From: an uncultured Bdellovibrionales bacterium
GTDB taxonomy: Bacteria > Patescibacteriota > Minisyncoccia > Moranbacterales > UBA1568
Length of the DNA stretch: 11,685 nt
Direction of reading: 5' to 3'
Assembly (NCBI GenBank): GCA_964617535.1
Contig: CAZTYU010000003.1
Coordinates: 1,186 to 12,870, forward strand
Below the pieces are notes generated by a model. That model did not search any database. It was not told the DNA's origin and was given only the letters and a program-made list of their open reading frames with translations. The translations under genes were made by a program, and so were the position numbers. Shown one piece after another: positions 3,342-11,685 of this stretch (positions within the stretch are counted from its first letter, which is position 1; every line of letters starts with the position of its first letter).

Positions 3342-4865
3342 CTACTCCTTGTGTTTGGCGTGATCACGCTTTTCTTTCTCGAGGCGCTCCTTCTCCTCTT
3401 CTTCCTCGTCATCCTCGTCCGGCTTCGGGAGCGGGATGCCGTTCGGACCCATGAGCGCGGTGTTTGCCTTCAGGATCTTCTTGGCGGCATCGACGAGCTT
3501 GTCCTGGATGACCGTCTCCTGCGTGCCGGACACCATATCCTTCACGATCGCCGTACCGTCGAGCGCTTCTTTCTGCCCGATGATGATGGTCACCTCGACG
3601 CCGAGGCGGTTCGCGACACGGAGCTGGCTTTTCAGCGTACCGCGACCGAACGATTCTGCGATGAGGATACCATTTTTCTCGAGGTCGGCGAAGAGCCGGA
3701 GCGATTTCTTTTTCGCCATGTCACCGAGCTGAGCGAGAAAAACGCGCGGCTTCGGCTCGACATACGGCTTCACCTGGGTCCGCTTCATCTCGAGGATGAT
3801 GCGATCGAGGCCGAGACCGAAACCGATGGCCGGGGTCGGTTCGCCGCCGAGCGACTGGACGAGCCGGTCATAGCGACCGCCGCCGCCGAGGGAGTAGGCC
3901 CGGCCCTCTTTGTCCGTTGATCGGATCTCGAAGACCGTGCGGGTGTAGTAGTCGAGGCCGCGGACGAGCCGGGTGTTGATCGTGTACGGGAGTTCGAGCT
4001 CGTCGAGGTATTCGAGCAGGCGCTTGAAGTGATCGCGCGATTCCTGATCGAGGTAGTCGAGGGACTGCGGCGCGTGCGTCGTGATTTGGATGCACTTCTC
4101 TTCCTTGCAGTCGAGGATGCGCATCGGATTCGTCGCGAGCCGCTCCTTGCAGTTCTGGCAGAGGCGGTGTTTCTGGCTCTCCAAGTAGCGGACGAGGACT
4201 TTCTCGTAGTCACGGCGCGATTCGGGCGTACCGATGGAATTCACCTGGAATTCGATGTTCTTCAGCCCCAGGTCACGAACAACACGGAACGCGAGCTGGA
4301 TCACCTGGGCGTCGAGGATCGGATCTTCTTCACCAAAGACGTCGAAATTGGCCTGCCAGAATTCGCGGTAGCGGCCTTCCTGCGGACGATCATAGCGGTA
4401 GACCGGACCCATGGAGAACAGCTTGATCGGCTTCGAGAGCACCCCCATGCCATGCTGGATATACGCGCGGACGACGCCAGCGGTGAATTCCGGCCGGAGG
4501 GCGACGCGATCCCCGCCGCGGGTGTTGAAAACATACATTTCCTTGTCGATGATGTCCGTCCCTTCGCCGACCGAGCGAGTGAAGAGGTGAGCGTACTCGA
4601 CGAGCGGCGTATCGATGCGGCGATAGCCGTACTCGAGCTGCGCGTGCGAAAGGATGCGGCGAACCCGCTCCCAATACGGCTGCTCATCCGGGAGGATGTC
4701 GCGCATGCCGCGAAGCGCCTGGAGGAGGATCTCCTCCTGCATGAGGGCGGGCGCAGCCGGAGCCGGCTTGGCGGCCTTTTTCGCAGCCGGAGCCTTCTTC
4801 GGAGCGGCTTTCTTGGCGGCTGGGGCTTTCTTCTCGGTTTCCTTCTTCTTCGTCGTCTTGGCCAT
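3342..4865 (-). CDS. hisS: Histidine--tRNA ligase (class II aaRS) carrying a ~40-aa Lys/Ala/Pro-rich N-terminal extension and an acidic C-terminal tail
   Basis: Contains ...ALRGMRDILPDE... (motif 1 region), the HisRS-type anticodon-binding domain, and ...LGGGGRYDRLV... (motif 3, GGGRYD). Overall length and order match HisRS. The N-terminus MAKTTKKKETEKKAPAAKKAAPKKAPAAKKAAKPAPAAP precedes a canonical start-like MQEEILLQALRGM. The C-terminus ends ...KPDEDDEEEEEKERLEKEKRDHAKHKE. Confidence 0.9.
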   Translation of the reverse strand: MAKTTKKKETEKKAPAAKKAAPKKAPAAKKAAKPAPAAPALMQEEILLQALRGMRDILPDEQPYWERVRRILSHAQLEYGYRRIDTPLVEYAHLFTRSVGEGTDIIDKEMYVFNTRGGDRVALRPEFTAGVVRAYIQHGMGVLSKPIKLFSMGPVYRYDRPQEGRYREFWQANFDVFGEEDPILDAQVIQLAFRVVRDLGLKNIEFQVNSIGTPESRRDYEKVLVRYLESQKHRLCQNCKERLATNPMRILDCKEEKCIQITTHAPQSLDYLDQESRDHFKRLLEYLDELELPYTINTRLVRGLDYYTRTVFEIRSTDKEGRAYSLGGGGRYDRLVQSLGGEPTPAIGFGLGLDRIILEMKRTQVKPYVEPKPRVFLAQLGDMAKKKSLRLFADLEKNGILIAESFGRGTLKSQLRVANRLGVEVTIIIGQKEALDGTAIVKDMVSGTQETVIQDKLVDAAKKILKANTALMGPNGIPLPKPDEDDEEEEEKERLEKEKRDHAKHKE

Positions 4866-7178: not shown

Positions 7179-7736
7179 ATGCCCCCTATGACTACGCTCA
7201 TCGTCGGCCTCGGCAACCCCGGACCCGAATACGCTACTACTCGCCACAACATCGGTTTTCTCGCGCTCGACCGTTTGCGGGAAGTTTTTGGTGCGCCAGA
7301 ATTCCGTCCAGAAGCAAAGTTCTCCGCTCTGCTCTCGTCGGTCGTCGTCGATGGACGGAAAGTTATCCTCGCCAAGCCGACGACGTACATGAACGAATCC
7401 GGCCGCGCGGTCCGGGCCATCCTCGACTACTACAAGCTCAATCCCGCGGCACTCATCGTCATCCACGACGATCTCGACATCGCTCCGGGCACGCTCCGCA
7501 CCACCGACTCGTCCCGGGCCGCTGGACACAATGGCGTGCAGGACATCATCGATTCCCTCGGCACACAGGATTTCTTCCGCCTCCGTCTCGGCATCGGTCG
7601 GCCAGTTGAAGTTGAGGGCGTCTGCATACCGTCTCACGACTATGTACTCGGCCGTTTCTCGGAGGAAGAATCCGCCGGACACGCTGCCCTGTTCGATACC
7701 GTCATCAGAACCGTCCGCGACCGACTCGTGGCCTAA
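7179..7736 (+). CDS. pth: Peptidyl-tRNA hydrolase
   Basis: ...LIVGLGNPGPEYATTRHNIGF...AKPTTYMNESGRAV...VIHDDLDIAPGTLR...GHNGVQDI...RLRLGIGRP... matches the Pth signature. The start may be the internal ATG 7188 (MTTLIVGLGNPG). Confidence 0.9.
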   Translation: MPPMTTLIVGLGNPGPEYATTRHNIGFLALDRLREVFGAPEFRPEAKFSALLSSVVVDGRKVILAKPTTYMNESGRAVRAILDYYKLNPAALIVIHDDLDIAPGTLRTTDSSRAAGHNGVQDIIDSLGTQDFFRLRLGIGRPVEVEGVCIPSHDYVLGRFSEEESAGHAALFDTVIRTVRDRLVA

Positions 7737-7744
7737 CGCGAAAG

Positions 7745-7783
7745 AAACGAAAACCCGCCCGAAAAAACGGGCGGGTTTTTATT
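7745..7783. terminator. Bidirectional rho-independent terminator after pth
   Basis: aaacgaaaa-CCCGCCCG-aaaaaa-CGGGCGGG-tttttatt. It has an 8-bp GC stem, a 6-nt loop, a T-run on the plus side and an A-run on the other side. It starts 9 nt after the pth stop. Confidence 0.75.
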
Positions 7784-7928
7784 CGGCTGAAGAAGAGAGT
7801 TCCGCCAAAGGCCGGCAGTAGGAGGGTACTACCAACTCTGGACGGAACTGTCGCCTCCAGCACTCGGAAGAGGCTGCTTTTGTTTGCACCACCCTAGCGT
7901 CAAAACTACTCCCTGTCAATACTCGCCC

Positions 7929-7960
7929 AAGAAAAAAGCCGGATAGCACTAGCTACCGGC
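7929..7960 (-). terminator. Rho-independent terminator after the second small membrane protein gene (minus strand)
   Basis: Minus strand: GCCGGTAGC-tagt-GCTA(t)CCGGC followed by TTTTTTCTT. It lies ~20 nt downstream of the stop at 7980. Confidence 0.6.
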
Positions 7961-7979
7961 CAAACGGACGCGAAGCGGT

Positions 7980-8360
7980 TCATGACGCGTCACGCGGACG
8001 AGAGCCCATCACCGTGACGAGCATCTGGTACGCGGCGATCGATGCGATCGCCATGAGCGCGAGTAGGCAGGCGATCAGGCTCCACTCGGCGTGGAAATAC
8101 ACGATCAGGATGGGCGAGACGGCGAACACCATGAGGCGCGGAAAGAGGCGGTATTTATCCGCAAACGTTTCCTGAGTCGCCCAGACGACTGCGAGATACA
8201 GGACGAATCCCGTACCGATGCCATGGACGAACGCTTCGGCTGAAGCTTCGCCTGGCTCCGTCAGGAGCACATACCCCGTGAGACCGATGCACATCGGGAT
8301 CGCCACCATGAGACCACCGAGAACGAGCGCAGCTATCCAGTAAAGAACGAGCTTTCCCAT
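7980..8360 (-). CDS. Small 4-TM integral membrane protein (126 aa), unknown function, paralog B
   Basis: The ORF-track ORF 7980..8405 is trimmed to ATG 8360 (MGKLVLYWIAALVLGG...), which is preceded by AAAGGAGG at 5 nt. It has four hydrophobic segments and GC3-rich codons. A conserved promoter/leader cassette lies upstream (see findings). Confidence 0.65.
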   Translation of the reverse strand: MGKLVLYWIAALVLGGLMVAIPMCIGLTGYVLLTEPGEASAEAFVHGIGTGFVLYLAVVWATQETFADKYRLFPRLMVFAVSPILIVYFHAEWSLIACLLALMAIASIAAYQMLVTVMGSRPRDAS

Positions 8361-8395
8361 GATCCCCTCCTTTCGTAGCGGCTGTGGGATGACTG

Positions 8396-8424
8396 ATACT
8401 CGCACCCGTCCTGAAAAATGTCAA
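8396..8424 (-). promoter_or_regulatory. Putative sigma70-type promoter (cassette copy 2): TTGACA-17nt-GAGTAT, for membrane protein B
   Basis: -35 TTGACA (plus 8419..8424 as tgtcaa) is embedded in the conserved 17-mer TTTTTCTTTTGACATTT. The -10 GAGTAT (plus 8396..8401) follows after a 17-nt spacer. The copy-1 promoter has identical spacing. Confidence 0.5.
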
Positions 8425-8461
8425 AAGAAAAACCGGCGCCCTCTCTCGAGAGAAGCGCCGG
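8423..8461 (-). terminator. Rho-independent terminator (cassette copy 2) after membrane protein A
   Basis: Minus strand: CCGGCGC-ttctc-TCGA-gagag-GGCGCCGG (a long, nearly perfect hairpin) followed by TTTTTCTTTT. Confidence 0.7.
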
Positions 8462-8488
8462 GAAACTTGGGGGGGTGCCGTCACACCG

Positions 8489-8869
8489 TCACGCGCCGGC
8501 TGACTTCCGGTGGCTCACCATCACTTGGTAGACCGCCGGGACAGCCAGAACCGCGAGCACGACCAGCGTGGCGAAGTAGGTGAAGCCGAACGTCGGCATG
8601 AGCCAAGCGACCGCCGTCGGCAACGCCAGGAAGAACAGGAAACGCTTCATGGGCGACACCGCCTTCGCCGGGATGCCGAGCGCGACGACCGCAGTGATCG
8701 TCACAAACAGCATGAGCGAGAAGTAGGCCGCGACGCGCACGTCGACCGGGACGGCACGCGTGATCTTGGTTGCCTCGACGTACAGGACCGGGGCGAACAG
8801 CATCACGAAGAGCGCGAGCGTCGCGCTGAGGAGCGTGGCGAAGAAAAGGTACAGGATCGTCTTTCCCAT
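8489..8869 (-). CDS. Small 4-TM integral membrane protein (126 aa), unknown function, paralog A
   Basis: ORF-track ORF. MGKTILYLFFATLLSATLALFVMLF..., four hydrophobic helices. AAAGGAGG lies 9 nt upstream of the ATG. It has the same length and MGK start as paralog B but is only weakly similar otherwise. Confidence 0.65.
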   Translation of the reverse strand: MGKTILYLFFATLLSATLALFVMLFAPVLYVEATKITRAVPVDVRVAAYFSLMLFVTITAVVALGIPAKAVSPMKRFLFFLALPTAVAWLMPTFGFTYFATLVVLAVLAVPAVYQVMVSHRKSAGA

Positions 8870-8905
8870 TTGGGATGCCTCCTTTGCATGAAGATGGGAT
8901 GCCTG

Positions 8906-8934
8906 ATATTTGCATCTCCCCCACTAAATGTCAA
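8906..8934 (-). promoter_or_regulatory. Putative sigma70-type promoter (cassette copy 1): TTGACA-17nt-AAATAT (preceded by TGc), for membrane protein A
   Basis: -35 TTGACA (plus 8929..8934) lies inside the same 17-mer TTTTTCTTTTGACATTT. After a 17-nt spacer comes AAATAT (plus 8906..8911), with TG at -15/-14. Confidence 0.5.
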
Positions 8935-8970
8935 AAGAAAAAGGCCCCGTTTCCTTTCGGATTCGGGGCC
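8933..8970 (-). terminator. Rho-independent terminator (cassette copy 1) ending the flotillin operon
   Basis: Minus strand: GGCCCCG-aatccgaaaggaaa-CGGGGCC followed by TTTTTCTTTT. It lies ~45 nt after the stop of the 73-aa gene. Confidence 0.7.
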
Positions 8971-9017
8971 CGTGCTTCATGCGGCGTTGCCGCTGAAACA
9001 ATTGATGACCTACTGGG

Positions 9018-9239
9018 TCAGCCGGCGGTGGCTCCCGCCTCGGCCGGTGACGCAGCAGTCGGGTTCACGTCAGGGTCGTTGTGGCAGACGCAGCCGTGCA
9101 TGGTCTCGCTGCCGCCGTAGTCGCTCGGCTTGAGCCAGGCGTAGCGACCACCGCACATGCAGCTGGACGGGACGATCTTCCAGCCTTGGATGAGCGCGAT
9201 GGCCCACTTCTGCGGAAGTTGATCGGACATGATGGGCAT
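9018..9239 (-). CDS. Small Cys/His/Met-rich protein (73 aa), putative metal-binding, translationally coupled to the flotillin gene
   Basis: ATG 9239..9237 (MPIMSDQLPQKWAIALIQGWKIVPSSCMCGGRYAWLKPSDYGGSETMHGCVCHNDPDVNPTAASPAEAGATAG). AAGGAG lies 7 nt upstream and is formed by the flotillin's final Lys-Glu codons (ACC AAG GAG TGA cggc ATG). Codons are strongly GC3-biased like real genes here. A terminator follows. Confidence 0.55.
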   Translation of the reverse strand: MPIMSDQLPQKWAIALIQGWKIVPSSCMCGGRYAWLKPSDYGGSETMHGCVCHNDPDVNPTAASPAEAGATAG

Positions 9240-9243
9240 GCCG

Positions 9244-11343
9244 TCACTCCTTGGTCTTGGCCGCAGGAGCCGGCGCGGGAGCAGGCTTGGGAGTCGTTGT
9301 GCTCGCCATGCCGTCGCGCACCAGGTTGGCCAGGAGCACGTCGACCAAGGTCCCGCCGTTGGCACCGGAGGCGCCGCCGGAAACGAGGATCTCGGGGACC
9401 AGCTTCATGCCCGCCTTGCCGGCATCGGACAGCGCCTGCGCGACCTGCACGATCGCGTAGTTGCCCGCGTCCATCGACTCGATCTTCTGCTTGATGACCT
9501 TCGCCTCGGCCTCACCGATCGCCAGGGTTCTCCCAGCTTCGGCTTCACCGGTGACTCGCGTCACTTGGGCGTCGGCATCCGCGTTGATCTTCTTCGCCTT
9601 GGCCGCGCCATCTGCCGTCTTCACCGCTGCTTGGGCGTTGAAGTCCGCGATCTCGACGGACCGTTCGGCGGTCACGACGCTTGCCTGGGTGTCGGCCTGC
9701 GCAGTGGCCTGCTCGAGCTGCTTGCGCGTCTCCTGTGCCTGCCGCTGCGTGTCGAAGGTCACCTTCTGCTGTTCGGCGACCTTGCGGTCGGTCAGCGTCT
9801 GCATCAGCTCGGCTGGCGGGTTGATGTCACCGATGAGCGTCTCGACCGCCTGGACGTTGTACGTCCGGAGTGCCGCGGAGATGGCGGTCTTGGCTTCTTC
9901 TTGCCGCTGGCTGCGCTCCTTCAGGAAGCCGATGACGTCGGAGCTCTGGGCGGCGTTGCGGAAGTAGTTGCCGATGGTCGGTTCGAGCACCTGCGTGACC
10001 AGCGCCTCCATGCTCCCGAAGCGGGCGATCACCTTGGGGGCGTCATTCCGCGGGATATGGATGATCTGGCTCACGTCGAGGTTGAACGTGAAGCCATCGG
10101 CCGAGCGGACCGTGATGGTCGAGAGGTTGGCGTCGAGCTTGTGGCTCTCCGTCTTCGCCGTCGCCCAGTTGAGGACGACGTTCGCCGTCGGCACCACCCG
10201 CACCTTGTGGGTGTAGGGGTTGATCGGGTACTTGCCCGGATCGAGCACGTCGTTCCAGACGCCCTTCTGGCCGCGTTGCACCAGGTTGCCCTGGGTGAAC
10301 TGGTCACCGGTCACGTCTTGCCCCTGGCTGCCCACGAACGCAACCACCACGCCGACCGATGCGATTGGCACCTCGGTCATGTCCTGCTGTTCCACCGTGG
10401 CGAACTTCGGGTTGATGAAGTAGCGACCCGCGAGCAGCACTTGCTCCTGGAGACCCTTCTTGCCGCCGTTCGCGAGGAAGGCGTTCGGGTTCTGGAACAT
10501 GTTGTGGTTCGCGGTTTCCGGACCGGCGATCTCGCCGGTTGCGAGCGCTTCGCCTTCCTTCGTCGTCACGATCCCGACCTTGTTCTCGGGGATGTCGATG
10601 ACGTCGGCCATCTCGACCTTGAACAGCACCGGGTTGATCCGGTACTGCCCCTGGGGGATGATGGTTGCCTGCGCACCACGTTCACCGCTCACCATGAACG
10701 CCTTGGCGTCCTGGAAGAGGTCGCACTCGACGTGCTTGGCGATGATGCGGCCGGTCGGAAGCGCGGCGCCATCCTTGGCTTCGACGACGCCGATCTTGCC
10801 CGCCGGGATGACGGTCATCTCCTTGGTCTCCACCGTGAAGACCTTCTTGTTGATCCGCCAAGAGCCCGGGGGGATCAGCGCCATCTGAGGACCACGCTGG
10901 CCACCCTTCGAGAGGAAGGCCCGCGCGTCCTGGAAGTCGTCGCATTCGACCTGCTGGCCGATGATGCGCCCCGCCGGAAGCGGTTCACCGTCACAGGATT
11001 CCACGACGCCGATGCGGCCCGGGGGGATCACGGTGAACTTCTCGAATTCGACCACGAACTGCCACGGCCAGTAGAAGAAGTGGAGTCCGGGCGCGAGTGC
11101 GTCGGCCTGGACGCCGGCCTCGCCGTTCAGGGCGATGACCTTGCCGGGCGGCAGCTCGCGGTTCGAGCCGAAGATCACGAACTTCTTCGTCACCAGACCG
11201 ATGCTGTCATCGGGGATGATGACGATGCCGAAGAGGCGGAGGACCTGCTTGTAGAACAGGACCGCCAAGGCCAGAACGACGACGGTGGCGATGAGGCCAC
11301 CATAGCCGAAGAGACCTGAAAGGAGGGAGAGTGCGTATTCCAT
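9244..11343 (-). CDS. Flotillin-like SPFH/band-7 protein (699 aa) with an N-terminal TM anchor, a tandemly repeated SPFH N-terminal beta-segment, a complete SPFH domain and a long Glu/Ala-rich coiled-coil flotillin tail
   Basis: N-terminal membrane anchor (LLSGLFGYGGLIATVVVLALAVLF). Four ~75-aa repeats follow, each with I-P-x-G-x-x-G-V-V / G-x-x-L-x-x-G-x-I / ECD-x-FQDA-x-AF / PG-x-YRINP / F-x-VE. Then a canonical SPFH core (...DVSQIIHIPRNDAPKVIARFGS...LEPTIGNYFRNAAQ...) and a flotillin-type EA-rich coiled coil (...AEAGRTLAIGEAEAKVIKQKIESMDAGNYAIVQVAQALSD...). This is similar to FloT/YqiK-type proteins. The C-terminus is TTTPKPAPAPAPAAKTKE. Confidence 0.85.
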   Translation of the reverse strand: MEYALSLLSGLFGYGGLIATVVVLALAVLFYKQVLRLFGIVIIPDDSIGLVTKKFVIFGSNRELPPGKVIALNGEAGVQADALAPGLHFFYWPWQFVVEFEKFTVIPPGRIGVVESCDGEPLPAGRIIGQQVECDDFQDARAFLSKGGQRGPQMALIPPGSWRINKKVFTVETKEMTVIPAGKIGVVEAKDGAALPTGRIIAKHVECDLFQDAKAFMVSGERGAQATIIPQGQYRINPVLFKVEMADVIDIPENKVGIVTTKEGEALATGEIAGPETANHNMFQNPNAFLANGGKKGLQEQVLLAGRYFINPKFATVEQQDMTEVPIASVGVVVAFVGSQGQDVTGDQFTQGNLVQRGQKGVWNDVLDPGKYPINPYTHKVRVVPTANVVLNWATAKTESHKLDANLSTITVRSADGFTFNLDVSQIIHIPRNDAPKVIARFGSMEALVTQVLEPTIGNYFRNAAQSSDVIGFLKERSQRQEEAKTAISAALRTYNVQAVETLIGDINPPAELMQTLTDRKVAEQQKVTFDTQRQAQETRKQLEQATAQADTQASVVTAERSVEIADFNAQAAVKTADGAAKAKKINADADAQVTRVTGEAEAGRTLAIGEAEAKVIKQKIESMDAGNYAIVQVAQALSDAGKAGMKLVPEILVSGGASGANGGTLVDVLLANLVRDGMASTTTPKPAPAPAPAAKTKE
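10378..11037 (-). repeat. Intragenic tandem repeats (3 full ~225-240-bp units, aa 103-322) within the flotillin gene, conserved at DNA level
   Basis: For example, plus-strand ...gcgtcctggaagaggtcgcactcgacgtgcttggcgatgatgcggccggtcggaagcgcggcgccatccttggcttcgacgacgccgatcttgcccgccgggatgacggtcat... (~10695-10810) against ...gcgcgtcctggaagtcgtcgcattcgacctgctggccgatgatgcgccccgccggaagcggttcaccgtcacaggattccacgacgccgatgcggcccggggggatcacggtgaa... (~10925-11040). Flanking half-repeats extend the repeated region to ~10165..11223. Confidence 0.65.
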
Positions 11344-11362
11344 GATTCAGAGATTCCTTCTG

Positions 11363-11638
11363 CTAGAACTTGAGTTGCTTGGATTCTTCGTCGCCCGGCT
11401 GGAGGAAACGCGCCTTGAATGCGCGCCACCCCTGCTTCTTGCGAAGCTCGCCGAGCACCACCTGCATCCCGTGTTCCGGCCACGTCTCTTCTTGCCAGAC
11501 CTTGCGGTCTCGGCTGAGCGAAAACGTGATCGTCCCAGAGACGCCACGAGCGGTGGCGATTGCGTACGGATAGCGATCGCGGACGACCGACTGGACCGTG
11601 GCAATGACCACTTCCCTTCTTGATGATTCTTGGCTCAC
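11363..11638 (-). CDS. Hypothetical soluble protein (91 aa), first gene of the flotillin operon
   Basis: The ORF-track ORF starts at a TTG at 11683. The in-frame GTG at 11638..11636 is preceded by GAAAGGAG at 7 nt and is the likelier start (VSQESSRREVVIATVQSVVRDRYPYAIATARGVSGTITFSLSRDRKVWQEETWPEHGMQVVLGELRKKQGWRAFKARFLQPGDEESKQLKF). It has no TM, stops 19 nt before the flotillin ATG, and has GC3-rich codons. The family was not recognised. The ORF could extend beyond the window edge. Confidence 0.5.
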   Translation of the reverse strand: MSQESSRREVVIATVQSVVRDRYPYAIATARGVSGTITFSLSRDRKVWQEETWPEHGMQVVLGELRKKQGWRAFKARFLQPGDEESKQLKF

Positions 11639-11685
11639 ATGAGCGCTCCTTTCTGAATGGGTATCGTACCCGTTAGTTGTCAAAG

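Follow-up and report, generated by a model that had tools for sequence, protein, structure and literature searches.

What can a flotillin-type gene be doing without an adjacent NfeD gene, and do the small genes packed around it make up for that absence? The question is raised by an 11,685-nucleotide (nt) stretch of contig CAZTYU010000003.1, from an uncultured bacterium deposited as Bdellovibrionales (the whole stretch is called the window here). A gene for a 699-amino acid (aa) SPFH protein lies in it between the genes for a 91-aa and a Cys-rich 73-aa protein, neither of which has a hydrophobic segment, and is followed by genes for two 126-aa proteins with four such segments each (4TM-a and 4TM-b). 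A preliminary description made from the letters alone had taken the missing NfeD partner as an anomaly of this locus and the five genes as one block, perhaps an undescribed membrane microdomain, stress or defence module. Part of this holds, namely the absence of NfeD and the tight packing of the first three genes, whereas the NfeD anomaly, the five-gene module and the defence role do not. The answer that we favour, with some reservation, is that the locus centres on a stand-alone SPFH protein, vault-like and gained by horizontal transfer, which is tethered to the membrane, works without NfeD and is placed between two lineage-specific small genes.

Band_7 (PF01145) is the sole Pfam match in the SPFH protein, at 99.7 bits against a cut-off of 23.6, and NCBIfam yielded sub-threshold matches only (HflC, 22 bits against a cut-off of 427). 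The N-terminus carries a hydrophobic anchor that is either one transmembrane (TM) helix or a re-entrant hairpin, and since K32 and R36 follow this anchor the bulk of the protein is probably cytoplasmic. Residues 41–400 are taken up by five tandem modules (R1–R5; Table 1), and the repeats that had been noticed in the flotillin are therefore real: R2 and R3 share 56% identity (E 1.6e-27), R2 and R4 38% (E 7e-17), while R1 and R5 are weaker (E 1e-3 to 1e-4). R5 probably corresponds to the protein's own SPFH1 part because it overlaps the start of Band_7 at residue 360. A hidden Markov model (HMM) built from R2–R4 of 46 homologues finds three strong copies in the 699-aa protein and a weaker match at residues 341–387, on the N-terminal edge of Band_7 (E 3e-6). 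Three homologues of 766–769 aa hold one more strong copy, and none was found in the canonical 610-aa flotillin of L066 (labels L006 to L087 designate related loci or contigs that were compared with the window, L012 being a contig of the same species). It follows that the modules arose by amplification of the first SPFH subdomain of the protein itself, and members of the family differ in how many they have. An AlphaFold2 (AF2) model computed from a 46-sequence alignment has a mean predicted local distance difference test score (pLDDT) of 70, with 80–93 over the beta-rich modules (residues 40–330). It places N-terminal helices at residues 2–13, 15–29 and 31–37 and two long helices further down, at 511–550 (40 residues) and 557–625 (69 residues). 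The protein ends in a Pro/Ala-rich tail. As modelled, the architecture is thus an anchor, four extra SPFH1-type modules placed before the protein's own SPFH domain, and long helices.

It is only of late that the vault and the SPFH cages (flotillin, HflK/C, prohibitin, erlin and stomatin) have been placed in a single architectural family. In the major vault protein (MVP) nine repeats, R1–R9, are homologous to SPFH1, and the counterparts of the shoulder and the cap helix are SPFH2 and the SPFH coiled coil, respectively (PMC12915596). Anchor, modules and helices taken together would follow this logic, with a membrane tether added to it. Consistent with this, the top 12 Foldseek matches of the AF2 model are all full-length MVP (E 5e-12 to 1e-8), HflC being found at 2.8e-7, and the predicted likeness covers the Band_7 shoulder-type domain and the long helices (residues 511–625) as well as the alignment with full-length MVP. 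At the level of sequence no similarity to MVP is seen. The SPFH protein has no Pfam Vault or MVP_shoulder match, and its nearest relative in a profile search of the PDB is flotillin-2 (residues 262–402, the C-terminal helices, E 9e-6), with QmcA and HflC also detected and MVP undetected. The same search and Pfam, run on 18 repeat sequences, gave no MVP or Vault match, two repeats being weakly similar to Band_7 (E 0.058). Homology to MVP and parallel amplification of SPFH1 are thus both possible. The two proteins also differ in that the modules here are of ~73 aa with a short helix and number four beyond the protein's own domain, against nine repeats in MVP. MVP is moreover soluble, whereas the SPFH protein has an N-terminal membrane anchor, and its C-terminal end is unlike the cap-ring (the last 75 residues are of low confidence in the AF2 model and show no cap-ring match). 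Prokaryotic homologues of MVP are reported from only a few bacteria and as ten Asgard proteins, with five repeats in an Asgard homologue (PMC12962969), and a band 7 protein of Herpetosiphon is predicted to have an MVP-like fold (PMC3762200). In the literature searched we found no description of the large membrane-anchored SPFH family as vault-like.

Of the known SPFH proteins, FloT/YuaG and YqiK share with it the N-terminal anchor, the Band_7 domain and a long Ala/Glu/Gln-rich helical region. Those two have partners (YuaF and YqiJ, respectively), whereas no NfeD gene is adjacent in any context of the present family that was examined, and the four extra beta modules set it apart as well. Compared with the canonical flotillin of L066 the N-terminal half is completely different. 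HflK/C, prohibitin, erlin and stomatin/QmcA have a single SPFH1 domain each, unlike the protein described here, and the FtsH or m-AAA proteases that serve HflK/C and prohibitin as partners have no evident counterpart at the locus.

The family to which the protein belongs is very large and highly conserved: 7991 homologues were found among 8000 scored candidates, and identity is ~70% across phyla. JGI labels homologues 'YqiK'. The best 120 are 663–769 aa long and 53–98% identical (mostly 66–75%) over 84–100% of the query, and include proteins from Niveibacterium, Uliginosibacterium, Ralstonia, Steroidobacteraceae, Bdellovibrio and Bryobacterales. When one genome per species was scanned, 49 other SPFH-encoding loci came up, in metagenome-assembled genomes (MAGs) of Patescibacteria and Saccharibacteria (54–71% identity, full-length matches), in Betaproteobacteria and Acidobacteria and, distantly, in Planctomycetota (~28%). 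In a neighbour-joining tree Saccharibacteria are intermixed with Acidobacteria and Betaproteobacteria. Homologues are also found on plasmids, namely conjugative plasmids of Ralstonia, beside PRTRC (68% identity), a Rhizobium plasmid and a plasmid of Clostridium perfringens (32–33%, full length). GC content at third codon positions (GC3) is raised in the SPFH gene (0.88), as in the 73-aa gene (0.84) and 4TM-a (0.90), against 0.74 in the 91-aa gene and 0.65–0.80 in housekeeping genes. The interleaved tree, the plasmid homologues and the raised GC3 together point to repeated horizontal transfer, and monocistronic SPFH genes gained by transfer have been described in Pseudomonas aeruginosa (PMC13086221). 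On the Ralstonia insidiosa plasmid pB1901 (L082) and in L006 the SPFH homologue lies directly downstream of a PRTRC/Prok-E2–JAB–ThiF gene set, with many small hypothetical genes in a row after it.

The lack of NfeD had been rightly noticed, as neither NfeD nor YqiJ_N is matched by any of the five proteins at E ≤ 1 in Pfam or NCBIfam, but it is no peculiarity of this locus. SPFH homologues have unrelated genes as neighbours, and no NfeD occurs among these in Niveibacterium, on a 135-kb MAG contig and in Ralstonia (Pfam run on each gene), in the annotated records of the Ralstonia, Rhizobium and C. perfringens plasmids (none listed), or at three other Saccharibacteria/Patescibacteria loci (translations of open reading frames (ORFs) read only). 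Most contexts consist of housekeeping or metabolic genes. In a published survey NfeD partners were assigned to SPFH subfamilies 1, 2 and 5 only, and none to subfamilies 3, 4 and 6–12 (PMC2636767). These contexts and this survey together indicate that the absence of NfeD is normal for the family. The notion of five genes conserved together fares no better, since the 91-aa, the 73-aa and the two 4-TM proteins, used as tblastn queries, had no match in any of the 49 other SPFH loci, nor at the Niveibacterium, 135-kb MAG contig and Ralstonia loci.

By analogy with the shells formed by flotillin, HflK/C, stomatin and the vault, many copies of the SPFH protein would assemble through their helices into a closed dome on the membrane. 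The cage would probably stand on the cytoplasmic face, as suggested by K32 and R36 behind the anchor and by neighbouring small proteins that are soluble and without a signal peptide. The four extra SPFH1 modules might lengthen its wall, giving a tall membrane-capped cage that could isolate a patch of membrane or client proteins and would do so without NfeD. In this organism, which to judge from its relatives is probably allied to Saccharibacteria/Patescibacteria, the SPFH gene would have landed downstream of a native 91-aa gene, whose product may be a generic adaptor or regulator for whatever membrane-scaffold gene follows it. The 73-aa protein, for its part, may in this lineage be a binding partner of flotillin-type cages.

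The 73-aa protein is likely to be a lineage-specific flotillin accessory, and the only credible one at the locus. Its cysteines are arranged as C27xC29...C50xC52H53, as had been described, and all five residues are invariant, which suggests a CxC...CxC metal site; the protein probably binds zinc, judging from these residues. Homologues are scarce: a word-indexed search returned two clusters at 90% identity only, the second from L066, two metagenome scans added none, and comparison with the PDB revealed no similarity. One of these scans, with a degenerate DNA pattern for CVCHNDP(D/E), gave 11 matches that were rejected as due to chance. The L066 homologue is 78% identical (BLASTP, 64 aligned residues) and the two genes differ at a proportion of 0.18 of non-synonymous sites (pN) and 0.78 of synonymous sites (pS), the latter being saturated. 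In L066 it lies 11 nt after the canonical flotillin gene and before rpsL, and that flotillin is itself preceded by a 173-aa NfeD protein with two hydrophobic segments (28.0 bits for PF01957, cut-off 29.1) and by a fragment of Peptidase_M50. BLAST detects no similarity between the L066 flotillin and the window's SPFH protein at E 1e-2. The 73-aa gene is thus found, in two diverged genomes, behind flotillin-type genes that differ greatly from each other, and nothing else at the locus speaks positively for a specific SPFH accessory. Small Cys-rich genes were seen behind a member of the SPFH family in one other case, an Ignavibacteria MAG (L030 3259–4055) in which a 642-aa homologue is followed directly by two small CxxCxGxG-rich proteins resembling DnaJ-type zinc fingers.

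The history of the 91-aa gene is different. It too is a real gene under purifying selection, as indicated by a ratio of non-synonymous to synonymous substitution rates (dN/dS) of 0.25–0.30, and the same conclusion follows for the 73-aa gene from its pN and pS. The 91-aa protein carries the family motif GPYAVA..GS(I/V)TFSL..W.E..PE.G..V.L..RKK..GWRA..ARF..P.DE. A word-indexed search found nine close homologues only, and a full HMM search at least 309 clusters at E < 1e-3, many of them stand-alone proteins of 80–100 aa, one a tandem duplication and others proteins of 200–470 aa without a Pfam domain in which the 91-aa domain is N-terminal. Sixty members of the family have no Pfam match and the profile has none in the PDB. 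In the structure model the protein is small and built of six beta strands, and the structures that it weakly matches are barrels of the OB type, which recalls the C-terminal OB domain of NfeD (PF01957). A hidden OB-fold or NfeD domain in this protein, which had been raised as a possibility, is not detected at the sequence level by Pfam, by the PDB profile search or by hhalign against the L066 NfeD (probability 0.1%), and the protein lacks both a PF01957 match and TM helices.

SPFH comes after the 91-aa gene in the window's species and in no relative. In L014 and L015 the homologue (~70% identity) precedes a protein of 296 and 292 aa, respectively; the two are homologous and combine two TM segments with a coiled coil. 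In L068–L070 the order is L25, 91-aa homologue, a 299-aa protein with two TM segments and a coiled coil, a small TM protein and a solute-binding-like protein. L087 has a 91-aa homologue, a 215-aa coiled-coil protein, a 319-aa protein with two TM segments and a coiled coil, and solute-binding-like proteins. In L065, L25 is followed by a 91-aa homologue (57% identity), a 266-aa protein matching PspA_IM30 over nearly the whole profile below threshold (E 7e-4), and a cut ORF with a weak YqiJ_N match (21.3 bits against a cut-off of 23). From these contexts, the 91-aa gene is native and heads clusters of mostly membrane-associated coiled-coil proteins. Homology among the proteins encoded 3' of it was sought by hhalign and HMM and not found beyond L014 and L015, whose proteins are clearly related (43%); that of L068 has only a short motif in common with them and that of L087 only the architecture, so the shared theme would appear to be an architectural one. 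As a side observation, the cluster recurs (L065 1353–2708; L068 449–3796; L014 8001–10404; L087 4001–8297) in the order small beta-protein, coiled-coil protein (two TM segments or weakly PspA_IM30-like), small TM protein and one or two NMT1_3 proteins. One 91-aa homologue has genes for type I restriction (HsdR) or an OLD-type nuclease upstream of it. Of the genes proposed as neighbours of flotillins, the 73-aa gene alone has a counterpart so placed, behind the NfeD–flotillin pair in L066; the 91-aa gene has none, nor do the 4-TM genes, which were found on contigs of the same species only.

Bacillus subtilis offers a parallel, as PspA is recruited by an SPFH protein in its pspA-ydjGHI membrane-stress cluster (PMC8581546). 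L065 resembles this arrangement with its 91-aa homologue and its weak PspA_IM30 and YqiJ_N matches, the SPFH gene filling the same slot in the window. The likeness goes no further, since neither the 91-aa nor the 73-aa protein has detectable homology to the named Psp and Ydj components and the window has no PspA gene. As general background, YdjG is a small zinc-ribbon protein, to which the 73-aa protein would be a parallel.

Several observations weigh against the answer given at the outset. The vault-like reading is based on a predicted monomer with a mean pLDDT of 70 and only 50–70 in the SPFH core, and the absence of any sequence match to MVP repeats or shoulder leaves room for convergence through independent amplification of SPFH1. 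The raised GC3 may mirror expression level instead of foreign origin. The association of the 73-aa gene with flotillins has been seen at two independent loci only. Finally, in relatives the 91-aa gene always precedes another protein, mostly coiled-coil and membrane-anchored or weakly PspA-like, so that it could be a real partner of such scaffolds and its adjacency to the SPFH gene may be functional and not accidental. A bolder proposal would make the family membrane-tethered half-vaults, homo-oligomeric cages walled by amplified SPFH1 modules like the eukaryotic vault, whether MVP homologues or a parallel invention, with the 73-aa zinc protein and perhaps the 91-aa barrel as cage adaptors replacing NfeD; we consider it unlikely as a whole.

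Whichever way these points are settled, the family deserves attention because it is so large, conserved and plasmid-borne, with experimentally tractable homologues in Ralstonia, Rhizobium and C. perfringens, in which one could examine directly whether cage height depends on the number of repeats, and what the cages contain. If the proteins are as proposed, they would be natural intermediates with a flotillin-type anchor and a vault-type wall of repeated SPFH1 modules, and if they are true MVP homologues the prokaryotic pool from which the vault could derive would be greatly widened. For annotation, a flotillin without NfeD is not by itself the sign of a novel system, and small flanking ORFs need evidence from gene neighbourhoods before they are called partners.

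The best surviving of the other explanations is that the three genes are a real functional module in which the 91-aa beta-barrel replaces the OB domain of NfeD and the 73-aa zinc protein is a second accessory, both binding the SPFH cage. The packing of the genes, which had been correctly described as tight, agrees with this: gaps of 19 nt (91-aa to SPFH) and 4 nt (SPFH to 73-aa), a Shine–Dalgarno (SD) sequence for each gene, and an arrangement that is identical in six contigs of the same species, with L25 upstream. So do the 73-aa homologue behind another flotillin, the predicted OB-like barrel, which is of the fold class of the NfeD C-terminal domain, and the unfailing presence of a protein, usually coiled-coil, behind the 91-aa gene in L014, L015, L068, L087 and, with weak PspA_IM30 and YqiJ_N matches, L065. 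However, the 91-aa protein has neither sequence similarity to NfeD nor its TM helices, its family supplies the N-terminal domain of many unrelated 200–470-aa proteins, as a binding module of general use might, no homology can be demonstrated among the downstream partners in relatives or between these and SPFH, and neither small gene is near SPFH in the 49 other genomes. We therefore see the module as a minority possibility, albeit one to be taken seriously. That the 91-aa protein is a small nucleic-acid-binding regulator (OB/S1-like) of the downstream gene, its link with SPFH being regulatory and not structural, seems to us rather improbable. It would fit the invariant basic RKK..GWRA..AR motif, the fact that the gene is always first in its transcription unit, whatever follows, and the ~95-nt 5' leader with a GC hairpin that precedes it, yet the protein bears no helix-turn-helix or other known regulator signature and the leader holds no Rfam element. 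It is very improbable that the SPFH protein is the base of a defence or exclusion module directed against phages or associated with mobile elements: the conjugative plasmids beside PRTRC, the Ralstonia contig beside Prok-E2/JAB/ThiF, the HsdR or OLD-type neighbours of one 91-aa homologue and a match to the SPFH-like PHROGs family phrog_200 (E 4e-20; 'lipoprotein'; SPFH core only) speak for it, against the lack of any PADLOC match for the five proteins at E ≤ 1 and of a nuclease, NTPase or other effector domain, the mostly housekeeping or metabolic contexts of SPFH, and the flanking genes here (L25, Pth, LCP and HisRS).

As for the stand-alone SPFH gene that we favour, it belongs to a transcription unit with the two small genes only. 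The ORF of the TM-less 91-aa protein begins, as had been noted, at its own GTG (11638), 7 nt 3' of GAAAGGAG, and stops at 11363. At the other end, the ATG of the 73-aa gene comes 4 nt past the SPFH stop with AAGGAG within the last SPFH codons, and the gene is probably translationally coupled to that of SPFH. The unit is closed by the strong intrinsic terminator that had been predicted (−22.8 kcal/mol, z = −3.5), a GC-rich hairpin followed by a U-run. Its promoter is likely, from the sequence of L012, to be TTGACA-17-TATTAT, just beyond the window edge, after the L25 terminator and ~110 nt 5' of the 91-aa GTG; a second TTGACA at 11683–11678 has no usable −10. A GC-rich hairpin (GGCGTCC...GGACGCC) lies in the 5' leader of the 91-aa gene (~95 nt; L012 1497–1590, upstream of window position 11685). 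An Rfam scan of the window and this upstream leader gave nothing at the gathering score.

The two 4-TM genes are unrelated neighbouring transcription units outside the SPFH operon. Before each lies a 48-nt region (8895–8942 and 8385–8432), the copies being 77% identical and made up of a terminator U-tail, TTGACA, a 17-nt spacer, a weak −10 and CATCCCA; the TTGACA of 4TM-a is at 8934–8929. A scan of 7700–11685 for consensus sigma-70 promoters found none, these TTGACA sites having a weak −10, so that the 4-TM promoters are a reading of the sequence. Both genes are followed by a hairpin and U-run (z −2.3 and −3.6), with a stem at 8461–8433 and a U-run to about 8424 for 4TM-a, and a terminator at about 7961–7930 for 4TM-b. 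With a promoter-like region and a terminator of its own for each 4-TM gene, the co-oriented block of five genes is indeed all on the minus strand and forms three transcription units (91-aa–SPFH–73-aa, 4TM-a and 4TM-b), not one. The two proteins start alike (MGKxxLY) and are otherwise barely similar (E 0.075). They had been suggested as the missing membrane partners, and as NfeD- or YqiJ-type proteins they were rejected, being separate units confined to one species and giving no Pfam or NCBIfam signal.

Table 1. Features of the SPFH locus, in window coordinates
Feature	Position	Strand	Basis
91-aa soluble small beta-protein gene, first of unit	11363..11638	minus	GTG start, SD GAAAGGAG
699-aa SPFH protein gene	9244..11343	minus	Pfam Band_7, homologue search, AF2 model, structural matches
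Hydrophobic membrane anchor (about aa 4–41, with GYGG break)	11221..11334	minus	Hydrophobic windows 4–22 and 23–41; AF2 helices
Five tandem ~73-aa beta-rich modules	10144..11223	minus	Internal repeats, repeat HMM
Module R1	11032..11223	minus	
Module R2	10813..11031	minus	
Module R3	10594..10812	minus	
Module R4	10369..10593	minus	
Module R5	10144..10368	minus	
SPFH/Band 7 core	9724..10266	minus	Pfam aa 360–540; HflC, prohibitin, erlin, QmcA and stomatin structural matches
Long alpha-helical region (aa 511–625), predicted flotillin coiled-coil/vault cap-helix equivalent	9469..9813	minus	AF2 and flotillin-2 match
73-aa soluble Cys-rich protein gene (CxC-20-CxCH)	9018..9239	minus	ORF, invariant residues, L066 homologue, pN/pS
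Intrinsic terminator ending three-gene unit	8933..8971	minus	Fold energy, U-run
First 126-aa 4-TM protein gene (4TM-a), separate unit	8489..8869	minus	Own TTGACA and terminator
Second 126-aa 4-TM protein gene (4TM-b), ATG at 8360	7980..8360	minus	48-nt promoter-like copy, own terminator

Two minor observations concern the rest of the window. HisRS (3342–4865, minus strand) is extended at its N-terminus by ~40 aa that are rich in Lys, Ala and Pro and resemble histone H1, and its C-terminal tail is acidic/basic. At the window's left edge a long plus-strand ORF (15–1097), rich in Asp, Arg and Glu, looks like a non-coding shadow frame, the true gene probably being on the minus strand and running off the window.

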